A DNA stretch of 64,000 bases from an uncultured Planctomycetia bacterium (GCA_964415355.1 CAYPYS010000001.1:145733-209732); one strand, 5' to 3'. Shown: positions 727 through 38,242, numbered from the stretch's first letter. Numbers and translations: made by a program. Notes: a model not told the origin generated them from the letters alone.

Positions 727-763
727 TAACTTTACATTTCAACAACGTTAAAGTGTAAAGTTA
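727..763. repeat. 37-bp palindromic intergenic repeat family 1, copy 1 (F orientation, arms A/A)
   Basis: TAACTTTACATTTCAACAACGTTAAAGTGTAAAGTTA; last 3 nt are the mcsB stop codon. Confidence 0.9.
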
Positions 764-1810
764 CCTTCCTATTTTTTCTCTGATTATCTGCGCCCTTTTC
801 ACATCCCTCTCATTGGGATCCAGCCTTTTCTTCTCAAGTTTCTGAAGATGGGCTGGCTGTGTAATTGTAAATAATTCATTTATAAGCGCTTGATCGACTT
901 CTTTTATCAATTTCAAATCAACGCCCAGCCTGATAAGCGACAACAGATCTATCGTCTCGCTGCTGGTAATAATATGCGCACTCTTTAAAGTGCCATAGGC
1001 GCGCCATATCCTATCCTGCAACGCTGATCTGTTTTGAGAATACAATGCCTCTCTTGCGCTCTGCTCATGGTCTATTATCTGTTTGATTATCCTTTCGATA
1101 TTGTCAATGATGTCTTCTTCCTTATGCCCCAGAGAAACCTGATTGGAAATTTGGAAAAAATTGCCGCTGGCCTCTGTCCCTTCTCCATAAAAGCCGCGCG
1201 CAGTAAGGCTGAGTTTTGTAATGGCCTGCAGCACCTTTCCGATCTGTTTTGTCATTACAAGGGACGGCAAATGCACCATTACAGACGCCCGCATCCCGGT
1301 ACCTGTATTCGTAGGGCACGCTGTCAAATATCCAAAATCCACCGAATACGCATAGTGCAATAAATTACCGAGGGCATTGTCAATATCATTGATTATATGC
1401 CATGCGTCCTTCAGGTCAAAACCTGACTTCATGACCTGTATGCGCAAGTGATCTTCTTCGTTTATCATTATGCTTACAACTTCTCTATCCGCCACGCAAA
1501 GACCTTTGTTTTCCGCATCTACTGTATGCTCCTTGCTCATCAAATGTCTTTCAACTAAAAACTGCTTGTCTATCTCTTTAAGTTTCCCTATATCCAAACA
1601 GAGAGAATTTTTTATTTTTTTCGACGCCGCTATTGCCTGCTTCGAAACCTGTAGTATCTCTTGCTGTTCTTTTTTGCTCGCCCAATGAGAAAACGGATAT
1701 CTTGCCAGGTTTCTGGCTAATCTGATGCGCGATGATATAACTATATCAGAATTCGGACCAGTGCACCTGAGCCACTCGCCCTGATTATTAAGTAAATCAT
1801 CTAAATTCAT
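761..1810 (-). CDS. mcsB: protein arginine kinase McsB (ATP:guanido phosphotransferase family)
   Basis: 349-aa ORF with guanido-kinase catalytic-domain motifs; sits between mcsA and clpC as in the classical mcsA-mcsB-clpC operon. Confidence 0.8.
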   Translation of the reverse strand: MNLDDLLNNQGEWLRCTGPNSDIVISSRIRLARNLARYPFSHWASKKEQQEILQVSKQAIAASKKIKNSLCLDIGKLKEIDKQFLVERHLMSKEHTVDAENKGLCVADREVVSIMINEEDHLRIQVMKSGFDLKDAWHIINDIDNALGNLLHYAYSVDFGYLTACPTNTGTGMRASVMVHLPSLVMTKQIGKVLQAITKLSLTARGFYGEGTEASGNFFQISNQVSLGHKEEDIIDNIERIIKQIIDHEQSAREALYSQNRSALQDRIWRAYGTLKSAHIITSSETIDLLSLIRLGVDLKLIKEVDQALINELFTITQPAHLQKLEKKRLDPNERDVKRAQIIREKIGR

Positions 1811-1829
1811 CTAACGACTCCTCCTGCCC

Positions 1830-1866
1830 TAACTTTACATTTCAACAACGTTAAAGTGTAAACTTA
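1830..1866. repeat. family 1 copy 2 (F, chimeric arms A/B)
   Basis: TAACTTTACA...TGTAAACTTA; ends 12 nt before the mcsB SD GGAGGAG. Confidence 0.9.
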
Positions 1867-1877
1867 GGCCTTTGCAA

Positions 1878-2390
1878 TTACTTCTTTTTTCTCTCAAGCC
1901 CTCTGATCTTATCCCGTATTTCAGCTGCCCTTTCGAATTCCTCCAGCTGTATAGCCTTCTGCAATTGCTCTTTTAGTTCCTGCAAAGCGCTTTTTGTCTT
2001 AAGTGCTTTAGCCACCTTCTTTGTCGGAGATTTGCCGTAGTGCTGCGTAGAACCATGTATTCTTTTTAAAAGCGGCAGGAGCGCCTCTTTAAAAGCGGCA
2101 TAACATTCTCCGCAACCAAGCCTGCCTACTTTCTTAAAATCTTCGTAAGTAAGGCCGCATCTCGAACACTTGGCTTTGGCCTTGGCTTCTTTCTTTGTCT
2201 TACTCGTAGTAAACTGTGTCCCTAAATCTGCGAGCCCGGCCAATAAGTCAGCGAGCCCAAAATGGCTTTCCATCTGGGCACCTTTCTTCTGAGCGCACGA
2301 TTCGCAAAGATGCAACTCTGTCATTTTGTCATCTACGATCTCTGTCAAATGCACTGTTGCCTGAATCTTGCCGCAAATGTCACATTGCAT
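1878..2390 (-). CDS. mcsA: McsA-like activator of protein arginine kinase (CxxC zinc-finger pairs plus a C-terminal UVR motif)
   Basis: 170 aa; CDICGK...CESC and CSRCG...CGEC cysteine pairs; UvrB/UvrC-like motif EEFERAAEIRDKI near the C-terminus. Confidence 0.7.
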   Translation of the reverse strand: MQCDICGKIQATVHLTEIVDDKMTELHLCESCAQKKGAQMESHFGLADLLAGLADLGTQFTTSKTKKEAKAKAKCSRCGLTYEDFKKVGRLGCGECYAAFKEALLPLLKRIHGSTQHYGKSPTKKVAKALKTKSALQELKEQLQKAIQLEEFERAAEIRDKIRGLERKKK

Positions 2391-2403
2391 AATTCCTCCT
2401 GCC

Positions 2404-2440
2404 CTAACTTTACACTTTAACGTTGTTGAAATGTAAAGTT
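2404..2440. repeat. family 1 copy 3 (R orientation, A/A)
   Basis: TAACTTTACACTTTAACGTTGTTGAAATGTAAAGTTA; immediately follows the mcsA SD. Confidence 0.9.
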
Positions 2441-2451
2441 AAGGTGATGTC

Positions 2452-3324
2452 TTAATATTTTACGCCGTCGACCGTTGTCAATTTTCTGAATTCCTGCATC
2501 AGTTTTAATGTCGCCTTGCCGGGCTTTCCATTGCCAATGGTTCTTTCCTCGATACTGATAACAGGCATTATCTCAGCAGCCGTGCCTGTCAGAAAGCATT
2601 CGTCCGATGTAAAAAGATTGTGCCTTGTAAGCACTTCTTCTTTGATCTCAAGACCCATCTTCTTTCCAATGTCCATCACTGCTGCACGCGTAATACCTTT
2701 TAAAATTCCTAAATACGCAGGCGGGGTCAACAACGATCCATCTTTTATAATAAAAATATTATCGCCCGTGCACTCTGCCACGTAACCAGAGGATGTAAAC
2801 ATCAATGCCTCTTCATATCCGCTGTTCAGCGCTTCTATCTTCGCCAGAATGTTATTTAAATAATTCAATGACTTGATCTGCGGGTTCAAGGCCTCTGGGA
2901 TATTCCTTGGAGTAGGCACGGTAATAAGCTTCAGGCCTTCTTTGTATAGTTTCTCCGGGTAAAGCGCTATTTTGTCTGTAATGATTATGATGGATGGCGC
3001 CTTGCATTTCCTGGGGTCAAGCCCCAGATCGCCAATGCCCCTTGTGGCAATAAGCCGGATATATGCGTCGTCCAGTTTATTGACCTTCAATGTGTCAACA
3101 ACTGCCTTCATCATTTCCTTTTTAGAAATGCTTATCTTCAGCATAATGCCCTGGGCAGACTCATAGAGCCTGTTCACGTGCTCTTCTAACTTAAAAACCA
3201 GCCTTTTATAAGAACGAATGCCTTCGAACACACCGTCCCCATACAAAAATCCATGGTCAAAAACAGAAACCTTGGCATCTTTCTTGTTAAAATATTCACC
3301 ATTGATATAGACTTTCAAACTCAT
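2452..3324 (-). CDS. class IV aminotransferase (branched-chain amino acid or D-amino-acid aminotransferase)
   Basis: Fold-type IV PLP aminotransferase motifs; ORF track extends to 3351, but a GGAGGGGG SD precedes the internal ATG at 3322-3324 (MSLKVYINGEY...). Confidence 0.7.
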   Translation of the reverse strand: MSLKVYINGEYFNKKDAKVSVFDHGFLYGDGVFEGIRSYKRLVFKLEEHVNRLYESAQGIMLKISISKKEMMKAVVDTLKVNKLDDAYIRLIATRGIGDLGLDPRKCKAPSIIIITDKIALYPEKLYKEGLKLITVPTPRNIPEALNPQIKSLNYLNNILAKIEALNSGYEEALMFTSSGYVAECTGDNIFIIKDGSLLTPPAYLGILKGITRAAVMDIGKKMGLEIKEEVLTRHNLFTSDECFLTGTAAEIMPVISIEERTIGNGKPGKATLKLMQEFRKLTTVDGVKY

Positions 3325-3355
3325 CTGCCCCCTCCTCACTATTACGAACATCGCT

Positions 3356-3392
3356 TAACTTTACATTTCAACAATGTTAAAGTGTAAAGTTA
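3356..3392. repeat. family 1 copy 4 (F variant, A/A) overlapping the lolD 3' end
   Basis: Inner CAACAATGTT variant; lolD reads GGT AAC TTT ACA CTT TAA from the repeat. Confidence 0.9.
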
Positions 3393-4042
3393 CCGTCTTT
3401 TATTTCTAAAATCTTGTCTGCTCTTTTAGCCAGCTCTCTATCATGTGTGGCAACAACGATCGCTGTGCCTTTTTTATTCAACTCGAACAAAATCCTGAGT
3501 ATCTCTTCTCCCATGTCTGAATCAAGATTCCCTGTTGGCTCGTCGCACAAGAGTATATCAGGATTATTTATCAGGGCACGGCCAATAGCCACCCTCTGCT
3601 GCTCGCCTCCTGAAAGCTCGCTCGGCTTATGATGTAATCTTTCGCCAAGCCCAAATTGCCGCAATAATGTCCCTGCTCTGCCTTGAGTCCTTAGCCTGGA
3701 ACCTTGGGTCTTTATCAGCGCTGGCATCATTGCGTTCTCTAAAGCACTGAACTCAGGCATGAGATGGTAGAACTGGAAAACAAATCCTATTTTCTGATTC
3801 CTGAGTCGCGCCCTGGTCCTGTCAGGCAAGGTGTAAAAATCTTTATCGTGTAAAAAAACATTGCCTGACGTAGGCCTGTCTATGCCTCCTATTATATGCA
3901 AAAGCGTCGATTTGCCAGCGCCTGACGGCCCGACCAGCGCTACTGATTCTCCTTTTTTAATTTCAAGGTCAATGCCTTTTAGCACGCGCAGATCTTTTTT
4001 GCCATCTCTGTAAATCTTATGTATGCCCTCAGCTCGTAACAT
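3377..4042 (-). CDS. lolD: lipoprotein-releasing ABC transporter ATP-binding protein LolD
   Basis: Walker A GPSGAGKST, ABC signature LSGGEQQRVAIGRAL, Walker B LLCDEPTGNLD; last codons and stop lie inside repeat copy 4. Confidence 0.8.
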   Translation of the reverse strand: MLRAEGIHKIYRDGKKDLRVLKGIDLEIKKGESVALVGPSGAGKSTLLHIIGGIDRPTSGNVFLHDKDFYTLPDRTRARLRNQKIGFVFQFYHLMPEFSALENAMMPALIKTQGSRLRTQGRAGTLLRQFGLGERLHHKPSELSGGEQQRVAIGRALINNPDILLCDEPTGNLDSDMGEEILRILFELNKKGTAIVVATHDRELAKRADKILEIKDGNFTL

Positions 4043-4045
4043 AGA

Positions 4046-5227
4046 TCACTCGTATCTAAGCGCCTGCACAGGTTCCACGCTCGCCGCCTTCCACGCAGGA
4101 TACATAGTTGAAACCAGGCTGATAGCTATTGCGGCGACTATTACGACTGCTGAGTCTGCCACGTTGACGTTGACAGGAAGCCTGTCAATATAATAAATAT
4201 CTCTAGGCAATTTTACGAACTCATACGTCTTTAAAAGATAGCATAGTAAAAATCCGCCTGATGCGCCCAACGCTGTGCCCAAGCACCCTATAAAAAATCC
4301 ATTTAACATAAAAATCTTTCCTATGCTGGAATTTCTCATGCCAATGGATTTCAAAATACCGATATCCCTTGTCTTCTCCGTAACCATCATGATCAGCGTA
4401 CCCACAATGTTGAAACAGGCAACGAGCACAATGAGCGCGAGTATGATAAACATGGTGACCTTCTCTAATTTCAATGCGTTGAATAAATTCTTGTTTAAAT
4501 CCGCCCAACTCCTCGCCCAATAACTATATCCAATAGAAGACTGGATCTCATCCCTTATGTTATTAGCCTCGTAAGCATCATCGACCTTCACGCCTATGCC
4601 GCCCGCCATATTTCCCACGGCGTAAAAATCCTGCGCAGCCTCCAGGCTCGTAAACACAAGATTCATATCATAGTCGAACATGTCAGATTTAAATATTCCT
4701 ATTACAGTAAAAAGCCTTGGCTTTGTATTCGCAGCTGAAATCAAAGAGATAGTATCGCCGAGCCGCAGATTAAGCCTCCACGCGAGTTCTCTCCCTATGA
4801 GCACCGTGTCTCCTTCCAGCTCAAAACTTCCAGAGATCAAATATTTCTTTAAATTCGTGACTTGCTTTTCTCTCTGCGGGTCAATGCCCCTGAACAATAC
4901 CCCTGTTACCTGGTCCTCCTGCCTTATCAGGGCCTGTCCGTTCACAAAAGGCGCGCTCGCTACGACGCGCGGTATATTATTTATCTCCTCTACCAGTGCA
5001 TTGTAATTCTCGATGCCGCCGTCTTTTTCTATGACAATGTGTGAATTCGTGCCCACTATTTTGTCGCGCAGGTCATTATCAAAGCCGCTCATTACCGAAA
5101 GTACGACTATGAGCGCCATCACTCCGACAGCCACGCCCAGAATAGAGATGAAGCTTATAAAAGAAATAAATCTTTCCTTGCGCCTCGAAAACAAATACCT
5201 TAAGCTTATCCAAAATTCACACTTCAT
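4046..5227 (-). CDS. LolC/LolE-type lipoprotein-release permease (FtsX/MacB-like)
   Basis: 393 aa; N-terminal TM helix, large periplasmic domain and a C-terminal FtsX-like 3-TM bundle; directly downstream of lolD. Confidence 0.75.
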   Translation of the reverse strand: MKCEFWISLRYLFSRRKERFISFISFISILGVAVGVMALIVVLSVMSGFDNDLRDKIVGTNSHIVIEKDGGIENYNALVEEINNIPRVVASAPFVNGQALIRQEDQVTGVLFRGIDPQREKQVTNLKKYLISGSFELEGDTVLIGRELAWRLNLRLGDTISLISAANTKPRLFTVIGIFKSDMFDYDMNLVFTSLEAAQDFYAVGNMAGGIGVKVDDAYEANNIRDEIQSSIGYSYWARSWADLNKNLFNALKLEKVTMFIILALIVLVACFNIVGTLIMMVTEKTRDIGILKSIGMRNSSIGKIFMLNGFFIGCLGTALGASGGFLLCYLLKTYEFVKLPRDIYYIDRLPVNVNVADSAVVIVAAIAISLVSTMYPAWKAASVEPVQALRYE

Positions 5228-5284
5228 GATTAGCTATCATTCTGTCATTCCCACTTTCGTGGGAATGACACTCTTGTTGCATAC

Positions 5285-6727
5285 TTAAGCTTCGGGTTTT
5301 AGCTGCGGAAACAGGATCACGTCGCGTATCGCAGGCTGATTGGCGAGAATCATAACCAGCCGATCTATGCCAATACCCAGACCGCCTGCCGGAGGCATGC
5401 CGTATTCCAACGCGCGCACAAAATCTTCGTCGATCTTCTTCGCGCCTTCCTGTCCCACCAGCTGCTCTTCAAATCGCTTTCGCTGCTCGATCGGATCATT
5501 GAGCTCTGAATACGCGTTCGCGACTTCTATGCCGCCAATGAAAAGCTCAAACCTATCTGTAAGCAAGGGATTGCCCTTCTTTCTCTTTGCCAGAGGACAT
5601 ATATCAGCAAATAAGTCAATGACAAATATAGGCTTATCTTTTGTTTCAGGCTCCAGCATATCTGAAATAATGTTAACTATTTGAGAACGCGTAATATCCT
5701 TGCCCTTGAAATCCATGCCCTTCTTCTTGAGTTTTTTGATCCATTCCTTCGCAGGATCATCAGGATTTATGTCGAACCGCTTTTTAATTTCGTCTGCAAA
5801 TGACCATTTGGGCCACGGCGTTTCAAGATCGATATCCTGGTTTCCAAACCTGACCCTGGTCGTGCCTAAGACTTCTTTTGCCGCATGACTGAACAATTCT
5901 TCTGTAAGCCGCATCATACCTTCGCAATCAGAATACGCCTCGTACACCTCAAGCATCGTAAACTCAGGATTATGCCTGATGGAAATACCCTCGTTTCTAA
6001 AATTCCTATTAAGCTCATATACCTTATCAAACCCGCCAACAAGCAGCCTCTTCAAATGCAATTCCGGCGCAAGCCTCAAAAACAGATCCATGTCGAGCGC
6101 CTTGTGATGCGTCTTAAACGGCTCACCAGCCGCGCCACCTGCCAGCGAATGCATCATCGGGGTCTCTACCTCCAAAAATCCCTTTTCATCCAAAAAGCTT
6201 CTTATTTTTGAAATTATTTTACTGCGCAATTTAAAGACGCTTCGCACGTCTTCGTTTACGATCAAATCAACATATCTCTGGCGATATCTTATCTCAACGT
6301 CCTTTAGGCCATGCCACTTTTCAGGAAGCGGCCGCAGACCCTTGGAAAGCAATGTTATTTCAGTCGCGTTTATCGTGATCTCTCCGGTGCGCGTCTTGAA
6401 CAAGCTCCCCTCTACCCCCAATATATCACCTATATCTAATCTTTTTAATATATTATCATATATATCTACGCCAATATTATTACTCTTTATATAGACCTGT
6501 ATCCTGCCGCCTGCATCTCGAAGATCAAGAAAAGTGCTTTTACCGTGCTCGCGAAACGCGGTGATCCTGCCGGCAGTTTTGACATTCGCGCCTTCAGCAA
6601 AGTCTTTTGTCAGGTCATGGATACGCTTTGTTTTATTGAAACGCCTGCCGTACGCATTAACTCCTATCTCGTTGAGTGCATTTAACTTATCGATTCTCTG
6701 TTTTACAAATTCGTTCATATCCTGCAT
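5285..6727 (-). CDS. lysS: lysine--tRNA ligase (class II)
   Basis: 480 aa; OB-fold anticodon-binding N-terminus and class II core motifs (FLEVETPMM, GGIEVANAYSELNDP, GLGIGIDRLVM). Confidence 0.9.
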   Translation of the reverse strand: MQDMNEFVKQRIDKLNALNEIGVNAYGRRFNKTKRIHDLTKDFAEGANVKTAGRITAFREHGKSTFLDLRDAGGRIQVYIKSNNIGVDIYDNILKRLDIGDILGVEGSLFKTRTGEITINATEITLLSKGLRPLPEKWHGLKDVEIRYRQRYVDLIVNEDVRSVFKLRSKIISKIRSFLDEKGFLEVETPMMHSLAGGAAGEPFKTHHKALDMDLFLRLAPELHLKRLLVGGFDKVYELNRNFRNEGISIRHNPEFTMLEVYEAYSDCEGMMRLTEELFSHAAKEVLGTTRVRFGNQDIDLETPWPKWSFADEIKKRFDINPDDPAKEWIKKLKKKGMDFKGKDITRSQIVNIISDMLEPETKDKPIFVIDLFADICPLAKRKKGNPLLTDRFELFIGGIEVANAYSELNDPIEQRKRFEEQLVGQEGAKKIDEDFVRALEYGMPPAGGLGIGIDRLVMILANQPAIRDVILFPQLKPEA

Positions 6728-6789
6728 GAGTATACACTCCTTTGCGGCAATTATATCCTATATGCCATATAGTGTCAACATTAATTGGC

Positions 6790-6826
6790 TAACTTTACAT
6801 TTCAACAACGTTAAAGTGTAAACTTA
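6790..6826. repeat. family 1 copy 5 (F, A/B)
   Basis: Last 3 nt are the lnt stop codon. Confidence 0.9.
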
Positions 6827-8194: not shown

Positions 8195-8271
8195 GATATG
8201 CTCGTTTTGGAATCACTTCTCACCTTGGGCAGGTCTAAAAAAGCCTCTTTATTTTTTGCGGGCATGGCGCC

Positions 8272-8308
8272 TAAGTTTACACTTTAACGTTGTTGAAATG
8301 TAAACTTA
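8272..8308. repeat. family 1 copy 6 (R, arms B/B)
   Basis: TAAGTTTACACTTTAACGTTGTTGAAATGTAAACTTA; between the secA terminator and the lnt start. Confidence 0.9.
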
Positions 8309-8314
8309 GGCGAG

Positions 8315-8370
8315 CAAAAAATAAAACGGAGCGAAGTCCGCCTCGCTGGGGCGGACAAGCGTCTTTTTTA
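8315..8370. terminator. putative bidirectional intrinsic terminator after secA
   Basis: GTCCGCC-tcgctgg-GGCGGAC hairpin (8336-8356), followed by a T-run on the plus strand (TCTTTTTTA) and by TTTTATTTTTTG on the minus strand. Confidence 0.5.
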
Positions 8371-8404
8371 AGGTCTGCCCAAGGTGAGAAGCATTAACTT
8401 AAAA

Positions 8405-11179: not shown

Positions 11180-11216
11180 TAAGTTTACATTTTAACGTTG
11201 TTGAAATGTAAACTTA
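11180..11216. repeat. family 1 copy 7 (R variant, B/B)
   Basis: TAAGTTTACATTTTAACGTTGTTGAAATGTAAACTTA; abuts the AGGTGGG SD of secA. Confidence 0.9.
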
Positions 11217-12610: not shown

Positions 12611-12647
12611 TAAGTTTACATTTTAACATTGTTAAAGTGTAAACTTA
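12611..12647. repeat. family 1 copy 8 (near-perfect palindrome, B/B)
   Basis: TAAGTTTACATTTTAACATTGTTAAAGTGTAAACTTA; only one mismatched pair across 37 bp. Confidence 0.9.
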
Positions 12648-13945: not shown

Positions 13946-13982
13946 TAACTTTACACTTTAACGTTGTTGAAATGTAAAGTTA
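13946..13982. repeat. family 1 copy 9 (R, A/A), tandem with copy 10
   Basis: Abuts the AGGAG SD of the uvrC-like gene; 2-nt spacer to copy 10. Confidence 0.9.
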
Positions 13983-13984
13983 CG

Positions 13985-14021
13985 TAAGTTTACATTTTAA
14001 CATTGTTAAAGTGTAAACTTA
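13985..14021. repeat. family 1 copy 10 (near-perfect palindrome, B/B)
   Basis: Same sequence as copy 8; last 3 nt are the murJ stop codon. Confidence 0.9.
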
Positions 14022-15539: not shown

Positions 15540-15547
15540 AACCCCCC

Positions 15548-15584
15548 TAACTTTACATTTCAACAACGTTAAAGTGTAAAGTTA
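15548..15584. repeat. family 1 copy 11 (F, A/A)
   Basis: Abuts the AGGGGGG SD of murJ. Confidence 0.9.
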
Positions 15585-15653: not shown

Positions 15654-15914
15654 ATGCCAATACTGCACGCAGCTTACAAGAGCATAAAAGTGATAAAAAG
15701 AAGGACGGCTCGAAACCTCTCCGTAAAGTCTCAGCTCAAAACAGAGACTGCGAAATTTATTGATTTGCTTTCTTCAAAAAAACCTGATGAAGCAAAAAAG
15801 CAGTTCAATATTCTAATGTCACTGCTAGATAAGGCCTGCTCTAAAGGTGTAATAAAAAATACTACGGCCTCTCGCAAAAAATCCCGCTTAATGAAAAAAC
15901 TCCGCGCCGTCTAA
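15654..15914 (+). CDS. rpsT: 30S ribosomal protein S20
   Basis: 86-aa basic protein with an S20-like N-terminal KSAIKxxRR pattern; the only plus-strand gene in the first 32 kb; TAA stop is the first 3 nt of repeat copy 12. Confidence 0.6.
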   Translation: MPILHAAYKSIKVIKRRTARNLSVKSQLKTETAKFIDLLSSKKPDEAKKQFNILMSLLDKACSKGVIKNTTASRKKSRLMKKLRAV

Positions 15915-15948
15915 CTTTACACTTTAACGTTGTTGAAATGTAAAGTTA
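15912..15948. repeat. family 1 copy 12 (R, A/A) between the convergent rpsT and holA
   Basis: First 3 nt (TAA) are the rpsT stop; last 3 nt (TTA) are the holA stop on the other strand. Confidence 0.9.
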
Positions 15949-18460: not shown

Positions 18461-18497
18461 TAAGTATACAATTTAACGTTGTTGAAGTGTATACTTA
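18461..18497. repeat. family 1 copy 13 (arms C/C), tandem with copy 14
   Basis: TAAGTATACAATTTAACGTTGTTGAAGTGTATACTTA. Confidence 0.85.
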
Positions 18498-18503: not shown

Positions 18504-18540
18504 TAACTTTACATTTCAACAACGTTAAAGTGTAAAGTTA
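18504..18540. repeat. family 1 copy 14 (F, A/A) overlapping the comEC 3' end
   Basis: comEC reads AAC TTT ACA CTT TAA (NFTL*) from the repeat. Confidence 0.9.
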
Positions 18541-21313: not shown

Positions 21314-21350
21314 TAAGTATACACTTTAACATTGTTGAAGTGTATACTTA
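21314..21350. repeat. family 1 copy 15 (C/C)
   Basis: TAAGTATACACTTTAACATTGTTGAAGTGTATACTTA. Confidence 0.85.
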
Positions 21351-21373
21351 AGAATTCCCGTGCAGTTCAGTAG

Positions 21374-22589: not shown

Positions 22590-22626
22590 TAAGTATACAT
22601 TTTAACAATGTTAAAGTGTATACTTA
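22590..22626. repeat. family 1 copy 16 (C/C, near-perfect palindrome)
   Basis: TAAGTATACATTTTAACAATGTTAAAGTGTATACTTA. Confidence 0.85.
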
Positions 22627-25123: not shown

Positions 25124-25160
25124 TAACTTTACATTTCAACAATGTTAAAGTGTATACTTA
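25124..25160. repeat. family 1 copy 17 (F variant, chimeric A/C)
   Basis: TAACTTTACATTTCAACAATGTTAAAGTGTATACTTA; abuts the leuS SD. Confidence 0.85.
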
Positions 25161-27426: not shown

Positions 27427-27431
27427 ACCCC

Positions 27432-27468
27432 TAACTTTACATTTCAACAACGTTAAAGTGTAAAGTTA
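27432..27468. repeat. family 1 copy 18 (F, A/A)
   Basis: Between the methyltransferase start (SD TAGGGGT) and the tRNA-Ala 3' end. Confidence 0.9.
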
Positions 27469-27494
27469 ACTCCCCTTCACGGGTTCTTGTAAAT

Positions 27495-27568
27495 TGGTGG
27501 AGCTGACGGGAATCGAACCCGTGACTCGACAATGCCATTGTCGTGTGATCCCGCTTCACTACAGCCCC
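27495..27568 (-). tRNA. tRNA-Ala (anticodon GGC)
   Basis: 74-nt cloverleaf GGGGCTG...GGTTCGATTCC...CAGCTCC-ACCA; G3:U70 Ala identity pair; anticodon loop ATGGCAT; encoded CCA. Confidence 0.85.
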
Positions 27569-27570
27569 GT

Positions 27571-27658
27571 TGGTGCCGGAGGTGGGAGTCGAACCCACAC
27601 GAGGGGTAACCTCACACGATTTTGAGTCGTGCGCGTCAGCCAATTCCGCCACTCCGGC
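27571..27658 (-). tRNA. tRNA-Leu (anticodon CAA), type II with long variable arm
   Basis: 88 nt GCCGGAG...CTCAAAA anticodon loop...long variable arm...GGTTCGACTCC...CTCCGGC-ACCA; only 2 nt before the tRNA-Ala. Confidence 0.85.
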
Positions 27659-27663
27659 AACTC

Positions 27664-27700
27664 TAAGTTTACACTTTAACGTTGTTGAAATGTAAAGTTA
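27664..27700. repeat. family 1 copy 19 (R, chimeric B/A)
   Basis: Last 3 nt are the accA stop codon; lies upstream of tRNA-Leu. Confidence 0.9.
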
Positions 27701-30023: not shown

Positions 30024-30026
30024 AAT

Positions 30027-30054: not shown

Positions 30055-30090
30055 CCTATGGCAAGGAAAAGTTTAAATCTCAAAAAGAAA

Positions 30091-30118
30091 TGCAGGGGAG
30101 CCTTAAGGTTCCCCTGCA
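30091..30118. repeat. GC-rich REP family 2 copy a (28-bp palindrome with one G/T mismatch)
   Basis: TGCAGGGGAGCCTTAAGGTTCCCCTGCA, followed by GCGGATAAGTTAT, which is shared with copy c. Confidence 0.8.
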
Positions 30119-30152
30119 GTGCGGATAAGTTATAAAGCAAAAATGAAGTTAT

Positions 30153-30989: not shown

Positions 30990-31007
30990 TATAATTCCCT
31001 TCTGTAT

Positions 31008-31865: not shown

Positions 31866-31959
31866 TAAAAACCTCGGTATTTTATAATAAAATATGATGT
31901 TTTATTATAATTTATTAAGAAGTATACATTACGCTATATAGAATGTCAAGTCCACCCCT

Positions 31960-31996
31960 TAACTTTACACTTCAACAACGTTGAATCTTAAAGTTA
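31960..31996. repeat. family 1 copy 20, degenerate
   Basis: TAACTTTACACTTCAACAACGTTGAATCTTAAAGTTA; several substitutions; in the divergent OMP/yifB promoter region. Confidence 0.6.
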
Positions 31997-32048
31997 AGTG
32001 AAAGAATAGGGCGCCCGGGCATGTCATATTAATAATAGGAGGTGCTAT

Positions 32049-33581
32049 ATGTTGGCAAAGATATTCTCGGCAGCTACAATCGGTATCGAAGCTAGGCAGA
32101 TCGAAATAGAAGTGGACATAGCAAGCGGGCTCCCTGGCATAGTGATTGTAGGTCTTCCTGATATTACGATACGCGAGTCAAGGGACAGGGTAAAAACAGC
32201 CATAAAAAATAGTGGCTTCAACTACCCCTCGCAAAAAATCACAATAAATCTAGCGCCATGCAATATTAAAAAAGCAGGTCCATGTTTTGATCTTCCTATG
32301 GCCGTAGGCATACTTGTTGCCTCAGAGCAGTTGGAATTCGACAATATAAAAGATTTTGTGTTCCTTGGTGAACTTGCGCTAAACGGAAAAATCAGGCCGA
32401 TAAAAGGCGCCCTGCCCATTGCGATGTCACTAAAAAATCTGGACAAGAAACTTATTATACCGGAAAAAAATGCATACGAGGCGAGCATTGTCGAAGACAT
32501 TGAAATATATCCTGCAAAAACCCTGAATAATGTATGTGATTTTCTCAAAGGAATCAATGCGCTCAAACCCATAAGCGTCAATAGAATGGATTTTTTTAGT
32601 AAAGATACCGGATGCGAGCTGGATTTTTCAGACGTAAAAGGTCAGGTCTACGCCAAAAGAGCGATGGAAATAGCAGCGGCGGGCGGGCACAATATAATAA
32701 TGATAGGCCCGCCTGGCAGCGGCAAGACAATGCTAGCAAAAAGACTTCCGACAATAATGCCTGACATGACTTTTGAAGAAGCAATCGAAACCACAAAGAT
32801 CTACAGCGTCGCAGGCCTTATCCCGGCAAAGCATTCTATTGTAAACACAAGGCCTTTCAGGACACCTCACCACACTGCCTCTGATGTCTCGCTCGTAGGC
32901 GGAGGAACCCTTTTAAAACCAGGCGAGGTCAGCCTTGCGCACAACGGCGTCCTATTCATGGACGAACTCCCTGAATTTCACAGAAATGTGTTGGAAGCAC
33001 TACGTCAACCTTTGGAAGACAGTCACGTAACTGTCTCAAGGGCAAGCGGCTCTATAAAATTCCCGTCGAATCTGACGCTTGCGTGCAGCATGAACCCTTG
33101 CCCGTGCGGATTCTTAACTGACCCGAAAAAAGAATGCCATTGCACACCTACGCGTATACAAAAATATCTCTCGAAGATCTCCGGGCCTCTGCTCGACAGA
33201 ATCGATATCCACATAGAAGTCCCTCCTGTCCGCTACAAAGAGCTCTCGGACGAAACTTCTTCCGGTGAGAAATCAGAGAAAATAAAAGAAAGGGTTGAGC
33301 AGGCAAGAAAACTCCAGCTCGCCCGTTTAAAAGAAGAAGGGATCTTCTCAAATTCACAGATGAACTACAAACTAATAAGAAAACATTGTAAGCTTGATGA
33401 CGTATCGCGCGATCTCCTGAAATCAGCCATAACAGAGATGGGCTTTAGCGCCAGGTGCTACGACAAGATCTTAAAAGTCTCCCGCACCATCGCGGACCTA
33501 GAAGAAAAACCCAACATCGAATCCGACCACGTGTCCGAAGCCATCCAATACCGCAGCCTCGACAGAAATCTATGGATCTAA
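32049..33581 (+). CDS. YifB/ComM-family Mg-chelatase-like AAA+ ATPase
   Basis: 510 aa; Lon-like N-terminal domain; Walker A GPPGSGKT; ChlI-type AAA module and C-terminal domain. Confidence 0.8.
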   Translation: MLAKIFSAATIGIEARQIEIEVDIASGLPGIVIVGLPDITIRESRDRVKTAIKNSGFNYPSQKITINLAPCNIKKAGPCFDLPMAVGILVASEQLEFDNIKDFVFLGELALNGKIRPIKGALPIAMSLKNLDKKLIIPEKNAYEASIVEDIEIYPAKTLNNVCDFLKGINALKPISVNRMDFFSKDTGCELDFSDVKGQVYAKRAMEIAAAGGHNIIMIGPPGSGKTMLAKRLPTIMPDMTFEEAIETTKIYSVAGLIPAKHSIVNTRPFRTPHHTASDVSLVGGGTLLKPGEVSLAHNGVLFMDELPEFHRNVLEALRQPLEDSHVTVSRASGSIKFPSNLTLACSMNPCPCGFLTDPKKECHCTPTRIQKYLSKISGPLLDRIDIHIEVPPVRYKELSDETSSGEKSEKIKERVEQARKLQLARLKEEGIFSNSQMNYKLIRKHCKLDDVSRDLLKSAITEMGFSARCYDKILKVSRTIADLEEKPNIESDHVSEAIQYRSLDRNLWI

Positions 33582-33597
33582 AAACTTATCCACAATC

Positions 33598-33623
33598 GTA
33601 GGGGAGCCTTAAGGCTCCCCTAC
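33598..33623. repeat. REP family 2 copy b (26-bp core GTAGGGGAGCCTTAAGGCTCCCCTAC), upstream flank of the RAYT gene
   Basis: Perfect 26-bp palindrome starting with GTAG; left flank AACTTATCCACA matches the arm of copy c. Confidence 0.85.
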
Positions 33624-33633
33624 TCTAAAACTT

Positions 33634-34125
33634 ATGACAAATATAAAAAGATACTATATTGAAAATGCGGCCTATTTTTTAACTACTGTTACGAAAGATA
33701 GAATTAAAATATTCGAAGATATAAAATACTGCAAAATATTACTAGTTACTATTGAATATCTAAAACTTATACTAGACTATAGACTTTATGGCTTCTGCAT
33801 CATGCCTGAACATGTACATCTGATCATACACCCATTTGGAAAGTATAATGTTTCATATATTATGATGCTATTAAAAGGGTCTTTTGCAAGAAAAATAAAT
33901 AAGATGAATGGGAATAAGGGCGATATCTGGCAAAAAACTTTCTACGATGAATGCATAACGGACTCTCGCCAGCTAATTAATAAATTAGAATATATCCATA
34001 ACAATCCGGTAGAAGGGCGCTTAGCGACCTCACCCGAAGAATATCCTTATTCTAGTTACAATCATTATATACAAACTGATTATCCACCAAATACTATTAT
34101 TGAAATAGATATTCCAAATTTATAA
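33634..34125 (+). CDS. REP-associated tyrosine transposase (RAYT, IS200-like HUH)
   Basis: 163 aa; HUH motif PEHVHLII; C-terminal TFYDE...YIHNNPVEGRLA tyrosine region typical of RAYTs; flanked on both sides by GTAG-type REP hairpins. Confidence 0.75.
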   Translation: MTNIKRYYIENAAYFLTTVTKDRIKIFEDIKYCKILLVTIEYLKLILDYRLYGFCIMPEHVHLIIHPFGKYNVSYIMMLLKGSFARKINKMNGNKGDIWQKTFYDECITDSRQLINKLEYIHNNPVEGRLATSPEEYPYSSYNHYIQTDYPPNTIIEIDIPNL

Positions 34126-34185
34126 ACTATCTGAATAACAAATTATCTTACATAACTTATTATCATATAATCTGCCATGATTGTA

Positions 34186-34239
34186 AACTTATCCACATAG
34201 TAGGGGAGCCTTAAGGCTCCCCTACTATGTGGATAAGTT
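34186..34239. repeat. REP family 2 copy c, 54-bp perfect palindrome, downstream flank of the RAYT gene
   Basis: AACTTATCCACATAGTAGGGGAGCCTTAAGGCTCCCCTACTATGTGGATAAGTT equals its own reverse complement. Confidence 0.9.
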
Positions 34240-34262
34240 ATTATTAATAATTAAACACGAAC

Positions 34263-35411
34263 TTAAGATTTTGGGAGATTTAAAATAAAAATACTTCCTC
34301 TGTCACGTGAGGTTTCTACGCGTATGCGGCCTTTGTGAAGCTCTATTATATCCTTTGCTATCGGAAGACCAAGGCCAGTGCCTTCTTTTTTTTCAGCGAC
34401 AACTCTTACAAATTTATCAAAAATCTTGCCAACTTGATCCTTGTCCATCCCAGGTCCGGTATCCTGTATCTCGACCTGGATTTCATCTTGAAGTTCTATT
34501 ATTTTAATAATAACATCTCCCTTATCTGTAAATTTTATCGCGTTGCCTATTAGATTCACAAAGACCTGTGTTAATTTATCCTTGTCTGCATCTATCCTGA
34601 GCTCGCCCCCGGGAAATTCCTTTTTGATCCCTATTTTTTTCTCGTTTGCTGTCTTTTCGAAATCCTTCACAACCTCTCCTGCCAACCTTATTATATCCAG
34701 CGTATCTTTCTTAAGCTCCATCTTTCCTGATTCTATCTTCGAAAGATCCAAAAGATCGTTCACCAGCCGCGCCAGCCTGTTCACCACTCTAAAGACATCG
34801 TTTATTATCTCTTTCTGTTTCGGTTGAACCTCGCCCGCAAAGCCCTTTTCTATATTGTCTAAATTCCCTTTTATTAAAGTAAGCGGAGTCCTTAACTCAT
34901 GCACCACGTTCGCAACAAAGTCTGATTTCATCCTATCCAGCTCTTTAAGTTGCGCGTTTGTCTTCTCAAGCTCATCCTTCTTTAACGCGATCTCTCTCTG
35001 TAGCTTCTGGCGCTCCTGTCTTGCCCTAAACTCTGCTATCGTTTTTCTTATCATCAAAGGCACTGAATCTTCATAACCGTCTCTTTTCGGTACATAATCA
35101 AATGCCCCTTCCTTGATGAGTTGCGCCGCGACAGCTTCATCGCCCTGTCCTGTTATCATAACAATCGGTATCTCCATATTCTTCGACTTGACCTCTCGCA
35201 ATGTTTCCAAGCCACTCTTCTTAGGTAGGTTATAATCCAGCAGAGCTATGTGATAAGTCCCATTTTCTAAAGTCACTATAGCATCTTCCCCGGAAACAAC
35301 GTGGTCTATCTCGTAGTCAAAGTTACCATCGCGCTGAAGTTTCTTTTTTACAATAAGGGCATCCGTAGGGTTGTCTTCTATCAATAACACTCTTAGTTTC
35401 TCTTTTGTCAT
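34263..35411 (-). CDS. hybrid response-regulator / histidine kinase (N-terminal REC, then HisKA and HATPase_c)
   Basis: REC domain with a phospho-acceptor aspartate context (LLDYNLPKKSG); H-box (HELRTPL); G-boxes (DTGPGM, GTGLGL). Confidence 0.7.
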   Translation of the reverse strand: MTKEKLRVLLIEDNPTDALIVKKKLQRDGNFDYEIDHVVSGEDAIVTLENGTYHIALLDYNLPKKSGLETLREVKSKNMEIPIVMITGQGDEAVAAQLIKEGAFDYVPKRDGYEDSVPLMIRKTIAEFRARQERQKLQREIALKKDELEKTNAQLKELDRMKSDFVANVVHELRTPLTLIKGNLDNIEKGFAGEVQPKQKEIINDVFRVVNRLARLVNDLLDLSKIESGKMELKKDTLDIIRLAGEVVKDFEKTANEKKIGIKKEFPGGELRIDADKDKLTQVFVNLIGNAIKFTDKGDVIIKIIELQDEIQVEIQDTGPGMDKDQVGKIFDKFVRVVAEKKEGTGLGLPIAKDIIELHKGRIRVETSRDRGSIFILNLPKS

Positions 35412-35426
35412 AATATTCTCTCTCGC

Positions 35427-35463
35427 TAACTTTACACTTTAACGTTGTTGAAATGTATACTTA
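35427..35463. repeat. family 1 copy 21 (R, chimeric A/C)
   Basis: TAACTTTACACTTTAACGTTGTTGAAATGTATACTTA; between the response-regulator start and the kinase terminator hairpin. Confidence 0.85.
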
Positions 35464-35469
35464 AATTTC

Positions 35470-35489
35470 ATTCCCGCGAAAGCGGGAAT
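35470..35489. terminator. possible terminator hairpin after the sensor kinase gene
   Basis: ATTCCCGC-GAAA-GCGGGAAT perfect 8-bp stem with a GNRA-like loop; only a weak U-tract on the coding strand. Confidence 0.35.
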
Positions 35490-35497
35490 CTATAAAA

Positions 35498-38155
35498 TTA
35501 TTTCTTGGATAATGTGAAATTAAAGGTGCTGCCTTTTCCTGCCTCTGACTCCACCCATATCTTCCCGCCGTGATTCTCCACGATCTTTTTAACGATAGTC
35601 AAGCCCGCGCCCGTGCCTTCGTATTCCGAGCCCTTGGCGTGAAGCCGTTGAAATATCTGGAACACCTTATCATGATACTGCTTCTCTATACCAATACCAT
35701 TGTCCTTTACGTAAAATTCATACGTATCGCCTCTATCAAAATACCCTATTTCAATAACAGGTTTTACGTCCTTCTTCGAATACTTGATCGCGTTTGAAAT
35801 AAGGTTAGAGAAGATCTCTGATATCCTGATCCTGTCGCAAGTGACCTTTGGAAAATTTTTACTGACCTTCAGATCCACTTTTTTCTCCTCCAAAGAATAG
35901 GCCAGGTTCTTTTTCACGTCAGACAAAAGCGTATTGAGATCGATACCCGGCTCTATATTCCTGATCCTTCCTATACGCGACAGGTTCAAGAGATCCTCGA
36001 TCAAGTTCGTCATCCTCGAGCTGGATTCTGAAATAGTCTTTAAGTATTCCTTGCCCTCTTTGTCTACCTTGCCAGAATATTCCTCTATTAAAAGTTTTGT
36101 AAACGCCTTAACGCCCCGCAAAGGCTCTTTTAAATCATGCGATACAATATACGTGAAATCATCCAGCTCTTTGTTCTTCAAAGCCAGCAAGTCATTCGCC
36201 TCTGCAAGTTGAGCAGTCCTTTCCTTGACCTTGTTTTCCAGGTTAGTGTAGAGCTCCTTGAGCTCCCCTGCCATCCTGTTAAACCCGGTAGCCAGCTCCT
36301 CTATCTCGTCCCCTGTCTTTATATCCAGTCTGTGGTCCAGATTCCCCTTTCCTATAACCCCGGCCCCCTCATAGAGCTTTTGAATAGGATTTGTTATGGA
36401 TTTCGTGGCATATAAAATTATAAACACCGCTATGACAGCGACCCCTGCTATTATAAGAAATATCAGGGTATTTATCACAGCTATCCTGTTTCTAAGATCA
36501 TTTTTATTTCTTTCTATCTGCGATATCTCGTTTTCCACCGCCCTGCCCAGGCTATCCTTTAAATCTCCCTCTAGTTTCACAAGCTCCCATCCGCGTTCCC
36601 TCATAATGCTATCATGTTCATCTATCACGCTCAGGGCCGATGTATTAAATCTATCCAGCTCCAACTCCATCTCTTTTATCAATGCAGCATCTTTATCGGA
36701 AATGTTTCTATATCTATTCAAATATTTTTTTATGTCAAAATAAACCTCTGAATATCTGTCCTTGTACTGCGCTTCCTGCTCATTCAGATAATTCATAACC
36801 AGGCTGTAGCTATTAGAAAATTCATCCTTTAATCTCAAAAGCATCCATCTCGCAGGCACGATTTCCTTTAAGACCTTCCGCGGCTCGCCCGCCTCTTTTA
36901 TAACAGAATCTTTCTGCGTTATTAATTTATCGATTTTCTTCTCAAGATCTGATTTTATAGACAGGAGATCGGAAAGGCTGGTTTCCTTTTCATCGAACTT
37001 TTCTATGTTGGAATCCACTGTCTCCATGATATTCCTATCCGCCTCTGTAATATCGCCCAAAAAGCGAGTTGCGCCTCTTAGACGCGCGTGCCTTTCGTAA
37101 TCCTTTAGTTCCTTATCTATATTCTGCCTCAACTGAAGATACATATTTTTATACATCTCGTCGCCAGTCAGGACATATCTGCCGCTGAGCCTCAAGGATT
37201 CCGCGACATCCTTTTCAAGTTTAGAAATATTATGTATGGCTGGTATGTCTTCTGTGAGAGCGGCTCCGACTCCTAATTTAGACGAGATCCCGCTCTTCTT
37301 TATGGCTATGATCTTGTCCAGGGTCTCTTTAAAATCCTTCTCTTTGGCCAAGAGAGAGACCATGCTAGAATTTACTTCTCCCTTCAGATCCACTATAGAG
37401 TCAACGACTGGCTTAATCTCGCCTGCTAAATCTATCAGGCCGGTCGCCAAAGAGCGCTCTTTATCAGAAAGAGAATAGCCGTGGTAATTCTTGTAATCCC
37501 GCAGGGATTTTTCCATGACCAAAAGATCTTCTGAAATAGAAGCGGGGTCGCCTTTGCCTTTAGCCGAATAATCCGCAAGTTCATTGAGCAAACTTGAAAA
37601 CCTTGTCTTTGCCTCGAGAATAAGGGTCGAGGCGCTGATATATTGAGTCTGGATCAGCAGAATGTCCTTCTCTTTCAGCATCTTAGATTCCTCAGACTCA
37701 AAAAGCCCTTTCATATTTTTATTATATTGAGTCTCTATCTCCCTTATGTCTTTAAATAAATCCTTTATCTCTGTCTTCTTTTTGAATATATCTACGGCAA
37801 TCACATTGATATCCCCGGCCATGTTTTCCACCTGCCCGAAAAGCCTTTTTTCCTCTTCTTCAGAAATAAATCTTTTAAGTCCTGAAATATCACCTTGCAT
37901 CGTTTTATAAGAACGTTTGTAGCTCGCCTTAAAATTCTCATTACCCGTTATTAGGAAATTATTTAATTCGGAAAGGACGCCTTCCAGCGAAATGGCGATC
38001 TGATAGGTATATCTGGACGCGGGCAGGTCACTTGCAAATACCTTGCCCAGGCCCCTATATATATGCCTGAGGCTATAAATAGAAAGCCCTCCCAGAAATA
38101 TCACCAGGAGGAATGTTACAAAAAAACTCAACCCGATCTTCCTGCTGATTCGCAT
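35498..38155 (-). CDS. large membrane sensor histidine kinase with HAMP domain
   Basis: 885 aa; N-terminal TM, long coiled-coil sensor region, second TM plus HAMP; H-box (VSHDLKEPLR); HATPase_c (DNGIGI, GTGAGL). Confidence 0.7.
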   Translation of the reverse strand: MRISRKIGLSFFVTFLLVIFLGGLSIYSLRHIYRGLGKVFASDLPASRYTYQIAISLEGVLSELNNFLITGNENFKASYKRSYKTMQGDISGLKRFISEEEEKRLFGQVENMAGDINVIAVDIFKKKTEIKDLFKDIREIETQYNKNMKGLFESEESKMLKEKDILLIQTQYISASTLILEAKTRFSSLLNELADYSAKGKGDPASISEDLLVMEKSLRDYKNYHGYSLSDKERSLATGLIDLAGEIKPVVDSIVDLKGEVNSSMVSLLAKEKDFKETLDKIIAIKKSGISSKLGVGAALTEDIPAIHNISKLEKDVAESLRLSGRYVLTGDEMYKNMYLQLRQNIDKELKDYERHARLRGATRFLGDITEADRNIMETVDSNIEKFDEKETSLSDLLSIKSDLEKKIDKLITQKDSVIKEAGEPRKVLKEIVPARWMLLRLKDEFSNSYSLVMNYLNEQEAQYKDRYSEVYFDIKKYLNRYRNISDKDAALIKEMELELDRFNTSALSVIDEHDSIMRERGWELVKLEGDLKDSLGRAVENEISQIERNKNDLRNRIAVINTLIFLIIAGVAVIAVFIILYATKSITNPIQKLYEGAGVIGKGNLDHRLDIKTGDEIEELATGFNRMAGELKELYTNLENKVKERTAQLAEANDLLALKNKELDDFTYIVSHDLKEPLRGVKAFTKLLIEEYSGKVDKEGKEYLKTISESSSRMTNLIEDLLNLSRIGRIRNIEPGIDLNTLLSDVKKNLAYSLEEKKVDLKVSKNFPKVTCDRIRISEIFSNLISNAIKYSKKDVKPVIEIGYFDRGDTYEFYVKDNGIGIEKQYHDKVFQIFQRLHAKGSEYEGTGAGLTIVKKIVENHGGKIWVESEAGKGSTFNFTLSKK

Positions 38156-38205
38156 AGGAAGATTGTATCATAGAGGCTTGTTTACTTCAAGAGCGACCAT
38201 CACTC

Positions 38206-38242
38206 TAACTTTACAATTTAACGTTGTTGAAATGTAAAGTTA
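38206..38242. repeat. family 1 copy 22 (R variant, A/A); last copy before the repeat-free polysaccharide island
   Basis: TAACTTTACAATTTAACGTTGTTGAAATGTAAAGTTA; 5 nt before the GT4 stop codon. Confidence 0.9.

Follow-up and report, generated by a model that had tools for sequence, protein, structure and literature searches.

A palindrome of 37 nucleotides, hereafter the 37-mer (TAACTTTACATTTCAACAACGTTAAAGTGTAAAGTTA), recurs between the genes of a 64,000-bp stretch of DNA (the window; CAYPYS010000001.1:145733-209732) assigned to an uncultured Planctomycetia bacterium; close homologues of the window proteins carry the label Candidatus Omnitrophota. Judging from the sequences compared, the 37-mer is probably a non-autonomous palindromic repeat of one Omnitrophota clade that behaves like repetitive extragenic palindromes (REPs) and miniature inverted-repeat transposable elements (MITEs) and is mobilised in trans. 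Its copies arose by insertion, are restricted to a lineage, evolve in a way that preserves the hairpin, lie at gene ends and are distinct from the repeat flanking the gene of a REP-associated tyrosine transposase (RAYT) in the same window. The window encodes McsA, McsB, ClpC, a Lol transporter, Lnt, SecA, PrfB, MurJ, LeuRS and similar housekeeping functions, and nearly all genes are on the minus strand.

A search at up to 3 mismatches returned 16 matches to the 37-mer, seven of the copies being exact masters, against 0 in 100 shuffles. A Hamming scan added six copies at 5–6 mismatches, which gave a total of 22 (Table 1). The initial annotation of the window had reported 22 copies in both orientations, one of them degenerate, with two tandem pairs, and all of these were recovered at their positions. 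Twelve copies are in plus and ten in minus orientation; orientation is readable only from the asymmetric centre, and three calls are ambiguous. The members of the tandem pairs are separated by 2 nt (13946/13985) and 6 nt (18461/18504). To the right of position 38242, no copy was found in the window with up to 12 mismatches allowed. The region was reproduced at 99.96–100% identity by six independent assemblies (JGI 3300009008, 3300009374, 3300009128, and 3300009314; ENA ERZ23499040 and ERZ23499064), so the copies are not artefacts of assembly, a possibility that the initial annotation had raised against itself.

The G+C content of the 37-mer was 24% (9/37), not about 27% as first estimated. Two 10-nt arms enclose a 17-nt centre, in which 7-nt inner arms flank the 3 nt in the middle. 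The element folds into a 17-bp stem with a 3-nt loop, with predicted RNA folding energies from -10.7 to -18.6 kcal/mol and z-scores from -4.8 to -6.6; 4 of the 17 pairs are G-C. In a set of 40 distinct variants, drawn from the window and from relatives, six of the 17 stem pairs were altered on both sides (e.g., C-G to G-C at pair 4/34 and T-A to C-G at pair 7/31), and the observed covariation score was matched by none of 500 shuffles. Most variants contain stop codons in all three frames of both orientations, and none of the 40 has GTAG or CGTC at an end. Rfam returned only two tRNAs at the gathering score and nothing at E ≤ 1 across positions 600–3500, where four copies lie. The 37-mer thus stands, as first described, as a miniature palindromic repeat family with no named match, and no published description of this family, or of such repeats in Omnitrophota, was found in the literature searched.

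The orthologous spacers of relatives, in which the initial annotation had suggested looking for empty sites, were compared with those of the window (loci of relatives, from reference genomes and metagenomes, are labelled L0xx). Around the McsB orthologues the gene order is the same as in the window. In L085, L086, and L087 (86, 84, and 81% McsB identity to the window, respectively), the mcsA/mcsB, mcsB/clpC, aminotransferase/mcsA, and prfB/secA junctions are 3–22 nt long and comprise a stop codon, a ribosome-binding site and ATG; in the window, the same four junctions are 59–67 nt long with the element inside. The copies therefore arose by insertion, being absent from the orthologous junctions of the relatives and present in those of the window. 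No copy was found in 21 kb each of L091 and L092, nor in 15 kb of L093, which has only a hairpin with related arms at lnt/lysS.

Once filled, a site appears to stay filled while the copy in it changes. Locus L084 (93% McsB identity) holds four intact copies, a right-half remnant at mcsA/mcsB and a decayed copy at mcsB/clpC, and at both of the latter junctions the copy of the window is intact. In a stretch syntenic with the metagenome-assembled genome (MAG) CAYULJ01 (75–94% amino-acid identity), an intact copy is present in both genomes at four of six junctions; at the fifth, the copy of L034 is interrupted by a different repeat, REP-2 (see below), and at the sixth (rpsT/holA), L034 has a canonical bidirectional terminator. 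CAYULJ01 has its own master sequence, TAAGTTTACACTT(C/T)AACAATGTTAAAGTGTAAACTTA, and in three of four orthologous pairs the copy is nearer the master of its own genome than its positional orthologue, some centres being flipped. Tandem pairs always join different arm subtypes, and five copies carry chimeric arms, the product expected when the two members of a tandem pair recombine at their common centre and collapse into one. Solo arms are frequent in the loci and are decayed copies; these, and long arm-to-arm spans, were also tried as traces of an autonomous element and rejected, as they proved to be decayed copies or ordinary genes only (L014 1943–7140 contains no transposase). Regarding the target-site duplication (TA versus TAA) raised in the initial annotation, TA is repeated on both sides of 119 of 120 copies, and TTAA and CTTAAG also recur on both sides, but all three are palindromic and inseparable from the arms.

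The family extends beyond the window. On the same JGI contig (159 kb), the 9.2 kb on the left of the window hold five more copies, and the housekeeping genes that follow the polysaccharide cluster at the right end of the window hold four more in 7.4 kb. Counted over the window and its same-contig flanks, 31 copies occur in about 55 kb of core DNA, or approximately one per 1.8 kb. The initial annotation had given roughly one per 1.7 kb. The density places the 37-mer at the top of the known range and not outside it, as "far denser than typical" had implied. The spacing is about 3 kb for the SMAG repeats of Stenotrophomonas and about 1 kb for the uptake sequences of Neisseria; in density, the 37-mer is similar to the uptake sequences of Neisseria and Haemophilus. 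With the inner 25-mer as the query, reference genomes yielded at least 52 loci; those listed come nearly all from many CAYULJ01 contigs, three being from other Omnitrophota or unclassified MAGs, and together they hold 110 copies in 332 kb, almost all of CAYULJ01. A metagenome scan with the master core of the window yielded 27 contigs, 26 of which (JACKQG01) do not overlap with the window and contain the exact core. The 37-mer is thus not confined to one region, nor is it genome-specific, which the initial annotation had supposed: it is abundant in CAYULJ01 and present in L084 and the JACKQG01 contigs, and relatives with the same arms and other cores occur in more distant Omnitrophota.

The abrupt stop reported at 38 kb is an element-free island of about 27 kb, since copies resume beyond the cluster. 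The cluster is truly devoid of copies (0 of about 20 junctions versus 19 of 35 in the preceding region, Fisher p = 4e-5), but the run itself continues beyond it and to the left of the window. In L094, a relative's version of the cluster with a rearranged gene order, 21 kb contain a single copy. The idea that the gap reflects a recent acquisition of the cluster by horizontal transfer was only partly supported, by this rearrangement and by a lower G+C content at third codon positions (0.457 versus 0.511); the cluster is not obviously foreign, because its first glycosyltransferase has Omnitrophota orthologues at 65–83% identity. The cluster (38248–64000) is a mosaic in comparison with L094: genes at 42481–47309 are 78–89% identical and relocated relative to the CapK-like and GT4 genes, and the other genes have only 34–68% identity. 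For abundant GTAG-tagged REP families, confinement to the core regions of genomes has been described (PMC3733652).

Within positions 1–38.25 kb of the window, 19 of 35 gene junctions are occupied by the 37-mer, and 12 are tight and have no element. Considering only spacers of at least 25 nt, 19 of 23 hold the 37-mer and the other four hold different hairpins, a count that is partly circular because the 37-mer itself lengthens the spacer. The claim that nearly every intergenic gap is occupied thus holds, with this circularity, for the longer spacers but not for the junctions as a whole. The usual order on the coding strand is stop codon, 37-mer, G-rich ribosome-binding site and ATG. In the loci of relatives, the ATG is typically 10–25 nt away (median about 15–20 nt), often through AGGAG. 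In CAYULJ01, the palindrome is extended to CTTAAG...CTTAAG, and its final AG often opens the AGGAG ribosome-binding site. Six window genes stop on the terminal TAA of the element (761, 6824, 14019, 15912, 15946, and 27698) and two further ones at an internal TAA (3377 and 18525). In the listed loci, the stop codon of the upstream gene is the first TAA of the element in 35 of 108 cases and an internal one in 13 more; the split between frames, 35:6:7 (chi-square p = 4e-8), demonstrates a strong preference for the first. For 117 copies both flanking genes were called, and these are co-directional in 109 cases, convergent in 5 and divergent in 3. No copy lies inside a gene, and outside full copies the 9-mer arms were met only once or twice. 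Most copies are located within apparent operons, a few nucleotides before the next ribosome-binding site, and three are directly upstream of strong promoters, i.e., at the ends of transcription units.

A 37-mer lies on each side of two tRNA genes (27498–27568 and 27574–27658, minus strand; whole stretch 27432–27700), which seem to belong to an operon and have accA and the gene of a methyltransferase as neighbours. ORF (open reading frame) finders start at TTG within the element at 15540–15566 and 27427–27450, so that MurJ and the methyltransferase share the spurious N-terminus LLKCKVRG; false N-termini and ORF starts of this kind are an annotation hazard in genomes with the 37-mer.

The 37-mer looks like the minimal member of an older family defined by its arms, which was expanded in one subclade. 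The TAACTTKACA arms are common to the 37-mer, a 56-nt CAYULJ01 subfamily and variants in L085, L086, L087, and L093, and the cores differ. At ispD/ispF and lnt/lysS of more distant lineages, hairpins with the same ends and different cores were found: TAACTTTACA-GTTGGTGCCAGGCACGAAT-TGTAAAGTTA in L087, TAAGTTGACAAA...TTTGTCAAGTTA in L086, CTTTACAAA...TTTGTAAAG in L093 and a version of more than 100 nt in L085. The lnt/lysS junction is occupied by related-arm elements in L086, L087, and L093, and L091 has a plain intrinsic terminator there; overall, the hairpins at these two junctions span lineages with 81–100% McsB identity. In the 56-nt subfamily the arms are the same, but the GC-rich TACCACTTCGTGGCACAGGCTTYCCC takes the place of the left half of the centre. 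Conserved ends with free interiors follow the logic of terminal inverted repeats. A 196-nt version of the 56-nt subfamily occurs at L014 6944–7139, with further small palindromes nested in its loop.

The most probable history of the 37-mer is as follows. An older low-copy hairpin family with the arms TAACTT(T/G)ACA...TGT(A/C)AAGTTA and interchangeable cores would have occupied a few gene ends, such as lnt/lysS and ispD/ispF, and in the lineage of the window and CAYULJ01 one minimal derivative would have multiplied to about one copy per 1.8 kb of core genome. Insertions would survive only between a stop codon and the next ribosome-binding site, the sole place that a compact genome tolerates, with the terminal TAA commonly taken as the stop codon; they would be nearly neutral, because the hairpin holds the stop codon spatially near the following start. 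The site would stay filled while its copy turns over, by insertion of a second copy in tandem, by collapse into chimeras, by decay into half-sites and by drift to the master of its own genome. An enzyme acting in trans presumably recognises the arms or the hairpin and leaves no non-palindromic target duplication. In mRNA, the 17-bp hairpin would be at most a 3'-end, stability or processing structure, and some copies may have been co-opted as 3'-end structures. A selfish element rather than a required function is the best reading, as relatives use bare junctions and copies decay.

Several observations weigh against such a mobile repeat. A systematic scan for target-site duplications at any boundary offset revealed no other direct repeat of 2–7 nt; no autonomous element or transposase with matching ends was found in the approximately 590 kb examined; and the six assemblies of the same strain exhibit no presence/absence differences, so current mobility is not demonstrated. 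At two junctions where the element sits, rpsT/holA (L034) and lnt/lysS (L091), relatives carry canonical intrinsic terminators. At the one asymmetric stem position in CAYULJ01, the sense strand has G.U in 37 cases versus A.C in 13 (p = 0.0009), which hints at selection on RNA; an overall bias in orientation, about 47:28, confounds this comparison, which is silent in the window, because the master of the window carries one G.U and one A.C in both orientations. For the initial proposal that the element insulates and punctuates genes, the evidence at the RNA level is one of position, apart from this single weak bias between strands. A host function under selection would likewise keep the same junctions occupied in different species.

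These facts leave a smaller but real chance that the 37-mer is a domesticated gene-end signal, which the host would use in place of a terminator, to stabilise 3' ends or to process transcripts between cistrons, with the conserved arms as the recognition site of a host factor and processing by, e.g., ribonuclease III, for which the early region of phage T7 is an example. The two terminator junctions and the G.U excess speak for it, as do the three copies upstream of strong promoters, the copies bracketing the tRNA pair, and the occupancy kept at lnt/lysS and ispD/ispF with conserved arms across the whole range of McsB identity. However, no T-run or U-tract follows the 37-mer and a terminator scan does not call it; most copies stand in apparent operons shortly before the next ribosome-binding site; in relatives, 3–22 nt of bare junction suffice for the same operons; copies decay to half-sites without replacement; and the G.U bias is subject to the confounding already mentioned. 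We consider rather unlikely the broader version, a domesticated general cassette that would join TAA stops in every frame and orientation to the 17-bp hairpin, abut the next ribosome-binding site, have its arms read by a lineage-specific factor, and serve genome-wide instead of intrinsic terminators and as intercistronic processing or stability sites. If true, it would be a bacterial counterpart of mitochondrial tRNA punctuation, created by a mobile element. A sigma-70 promoter function (TTTACA-N19-TAAAGT on both strands) was rejected because the hexamers are lost in the covarying arm variants TTCACA and TATACA and the 37-mer is not called by the promoter scan.

A genuine RAYT gene is encoded in the window, and the 37-mer has REP-like size, hairpin and extragenic position and no target duplication, so that it could in principle be mobilised by this RAYT as a second substrate or as a core-less derivative of a GTAG repeat. 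The outer arms of the GTAG-tagged repeat REP-2 (CTTATCCACA, or ACTTATACACA at L095 758) are loosely like those of the 37-mer, and the two repeats share spacers and nest in each other. Nevertheless, this origin is improbable: the 37-mer lacks a GTAG or CGTC tag, and it is REP-2, a different, GTAG-tagged palindrome, that flanks the RAYT gene on both sides, which identifies the 37-mer as not being the flanking repeat of this gene. The nearest 37-mers are 1.3–1.6 kb away, beyond other genes. REP-2 is rare, with 6 copies in about 83 kb (four in the window and two to its right) versus 31 of the 37-mer, and no RAYT homologues were found among the CAYULJ01 loci examined. The initial proposal that the 37-mer is not the cognate REP of the RAYT thus gains direct evidence.

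The arms of REP-2 are mostly a perfect DnaA-box 9-mer, TTATCCACA (TGTGGATAA on the right), which is present twice, in inverted orientation, where the palindrome is full. Inside the polysaccharide cluster, the only repeat is the copy at 44623. At L095 5872, the TAG of the REP-2 tag is the stop codon of folC, and the called ATG of mnmE lies in the right arm. A RAYT-type repeat may also insert into a hairpin of the 37-mer family, because at L034 578–680, orthologous to 21333–21373 of the window, a CAYULJ01 37-mer is interrupted by REP-2.

A DNA-level role as a protein-binding site or uptake signal (inverted uptake sequences, an operator of a dimeric regulator, or an Xer- or attC-type site) is very improbable. 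Covarying palindromic arms would fit dimer-binding sites too, the window contains comEC and a comEA-like gene, and the density is like that of uptake sequences. Uptake sequences, however, occur singly and also within genes, whereas half-sites of the 37-mer hardly ever stand alone and no copy is inside a gene; the half-site count rules them out. The copy number is far too high for an operator. The resemblance to an Xer/dif-like site (ATGTTAAA) fails on geometry, as Xer sites have 11-nt arms and a 6-nt centre versus 7-nt inner arms and a 3-nt centre here. The inner GTTAAAG resembles the GTTRRRY core of integron attC sites, which are ruled out by random orientation, housekeeping genes and the shortness of the element, so there is no integron cassette array. 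Finally, an assembly or scaffolding artefact can practically be dismissed: the 37-mer does break short-read assemblies, and many JACKQG01 contigs end near a copy, but the six independent assemblies reproduce the copies, which vary in sequence and fit the neighbouring reading frames.

Table 1. Copies of the 37-mer in the window, with the RAYT gene and other repeats (positions in the window unless a locus is given).
Feature	Position	Strand	Basis and remarks
37-mer, exact master	727..763	+	≤3-mismatch search; mcsB stop formed by last 3 nt (minus-strand TAA)
37-mer, chimeric arms (C/C at pair 4-34)	1830..1866	+	≤3-mismatch search; mcsA stop to mcsB ribosome-binding site GGGCAGGAGG; junction empty in L086 and L087
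37-mer, exact master	2405..2441	-	≤3-mismatch search; aminotransferase gene to mcsA
37-mer	3356..3392	+	≤3-mismatch search; lolD-like gene stops at internal TAA, 16 nt in
37-mer	6790..6826	+	≤3-mismatch search; gives lnt stop, directly upstream of 12/12 lysS promoter; old site
37-mer	8272..8308	-	≤3-mismatch search; centre of ~145-nt composite palindrome downstream of secA terminator
37-mer	11180..11216	-	≤3-mismatch search; prfB to secA; junction is 3 nt in L086
37-mer, B-type arms	12611..12647	+	Hamming scan; orientation ambiguous
37-mer, exact master	13946..13982	-	≤3-mismatch search; first of tandem pair 1
37-mer, B-type arms	13985..14021	+	Hamming scan; second of tandem pair 1; gives murJ stop
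37-mer, exact master	15548..15584	+	≤3-mismatch search; 8 nt upstream of murJ ATG
37-mer, exact master	15912..15948	-	≤3-mismatch search; entire spacer of convergent rpsT/holA, gives both stops
37-mer, C-type arms (GTATAC)	18461..18497	-	Hamming scan; in tandem pair 2; orthologous spacer of L034 has a single copy
37-mer, exact master	18504..18540	+	≤3-mismatch search; in tandem pair 2; comEC stops at internal TAA
37-mer, C-type arms	21314..21350	-	Hamming scan
37-mer, C-type arms	22590..22626	+	Hamming scan; orientation ambiguous
37-mer, chimeric arms (A-type one side, C-type other)	25124..25160	+	≤3-mismatch search; upstream of leuS
37-mer, exact master	27432..27468	+	≤3-mismatch search; one side of tRNA pair
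37-mer	27664..27700	-	≤3-mismatch search; gives accA stop; other side of tRNA pair
37-mer, degenerate	31960..31996	+	Hamming scan; divergent promoter region
37-mer, chimeric arms (C-type and A-type)	35427..35463	-	≤3-mismatch search
37-mer	38206..38242	-	≤3-mismatch search; last before polysaccharide cluster
RAYT gene, outside 37-mer family	33634..34125	+	Pfam Y1_Tnp; NCBIfam NF047646, 116.6 bits vs cut-off 80
REP-2, upstream of RAYT gene	33586..33640	.	GTAG-tagged palindrome GTAGGGGAGCCTTAAGGCTCCCCTAC with TTATCCACA arm
REP-2, downstream of RAYT gene	34186..34245	.	full palindrome
REP-2, other copies	30080-30135, 44603-44668; L095 740-805, 5855-5925		
Third hairpin family	5243-5270, 35466-35492; L042 4761; L075 2207		
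56-nt subfamily copies	L004 2626, L011 142, L017 454, L027 1234, L030 2857, L023 ~1990, L046 4796		

Several other hairpins and repeats were found nearby. Downstream of secA, a composite palindrome of about 145 nt (8238–8380) has the 37-mer at its centre, arms with A/T runs and a hairpin GTCCGCC...GGCGGAC; the composite is itself repeated, because a 92% identical stretch occurs at a non-orthologous JACKQG01 locus (L077 126–268). A third, low-copy hairpin, GTCATTCCCRC-GAAA-GYGGGAATGAC, with a GNRA-type loop, fills spacers without the 37-mer. In distant Omnitrophota, other, unrelated intergenic inverted-repeat elements lie at the same junctions (L087 9286–9488, L086 4855–5121, and L092 4514–5255). 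In L092, a Y1 transposase gene is located between lnt and lysS, with long inverted repeats (AGAGACGTTTTCCAACCC...) on both sides.

As a probable mobile repeat, the 37-mer extends the small palindromic repeats to the candidate phylum Omnitrophota. The series formed by empty sites, an old low-copy hairpin and a burst, together with the systematic use of the TAA as a stop codon, illustrates how a very compact genome can absorb hundreds of insertions and keep its gene ends. The same genome contains a rare GTAG repeat flanking a RAYT gene and a far commoner untagged hairpin, which bears on the origin and spread of untagged repeats (PMC3733652).

Among known systems, the closest in behaviour are the REPs and bacterial interspersed mosaic elements (BIMEs) of Enterobacteria and Pseudomonas and the GTAG superfamily, including SMAG. 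They share with the 37-mer a palindrome of 20–40 nt in hundreds of copies, species-specific masters, transcription into mRNA hairpins and an extragenic position downstream of ORFs of co-directional or convergent genes, often 20 bp or less from the stop codon. A REP within about 15 nt of the stop codon can reportedly affect translation of the upstream gene, as Liang, Rudd and Deutscher are said to have found in 2015. The REPs are GC-rich, with an imperfect stem, and often form inverted doublets or clusters, whereas the 37-mer is AT-rich, has a near-perfect 17-bp stem and is almost always a single unit; moreover, it lacks the two defining traits of a REP, the GTAG/CGTC tag and the position on both sides of the RAYT gene, where a GTAG repeat is found instead. 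A published survey located REPs in spacers of unidirectional or convergent genes, downstream of an ORF, and found the abundant GTAG families confined to the core genome; the 37-mer matches this pattern in its gene-end position and its core-genome restriction (PMC3733652).

The MITEs (the Correia elements of Neisseria, enterobacterial repetitive intergenic consensus (ERIC) sequences and IS630-derived elements) are also non-autonomous, with conserved terminal inverted repeats and a variable interior, are co-transcribed with their neighbours and exhibit nested insertions and empty and filled sites; the TA ends of the 37-mer are compatible with a TA target duplication. At the same time, MITEs typically measure 100–400 nt, several times the length of the 37-mer, for which no parent insertion sequence was found and whose TA/TTAA ends are inseparable from the palindrome. 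The mycobacterial interspersed repetitive units (MIRUs) likewise occupy intercistronic spacers of operons and overlap the upstream stop codon and the downstream start signals, as Supply et al. reportedly described in 1997, but they are direct tandem units of 40–100 bp that carry small ORFs and are not hairpins. An intrinsic terminator combines a GC-rich hairpin with a U-tract, whereas the stem of the 37-mer has few G-C pairs and no T-run. The class that the 37-mer fits best is that of untagged stem-loop families: small palindromes that lack a conserved terminal tag and for which no dedicated transposase is known. REP-like repeats without a tag have been listed for Mycobacterium, Deinococcus, Bordetella, Brucella, and Cyanobacteria (PMC3733652). 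The 37-mer differs from these in its phylum, its unrelated sequence, its higher density, its conserved arms with swappable cores and its systematic donation of stop codons. It is an undescribed family of a familiar small-repeat kind and not a new system, and it belongs with this loosely defined class.

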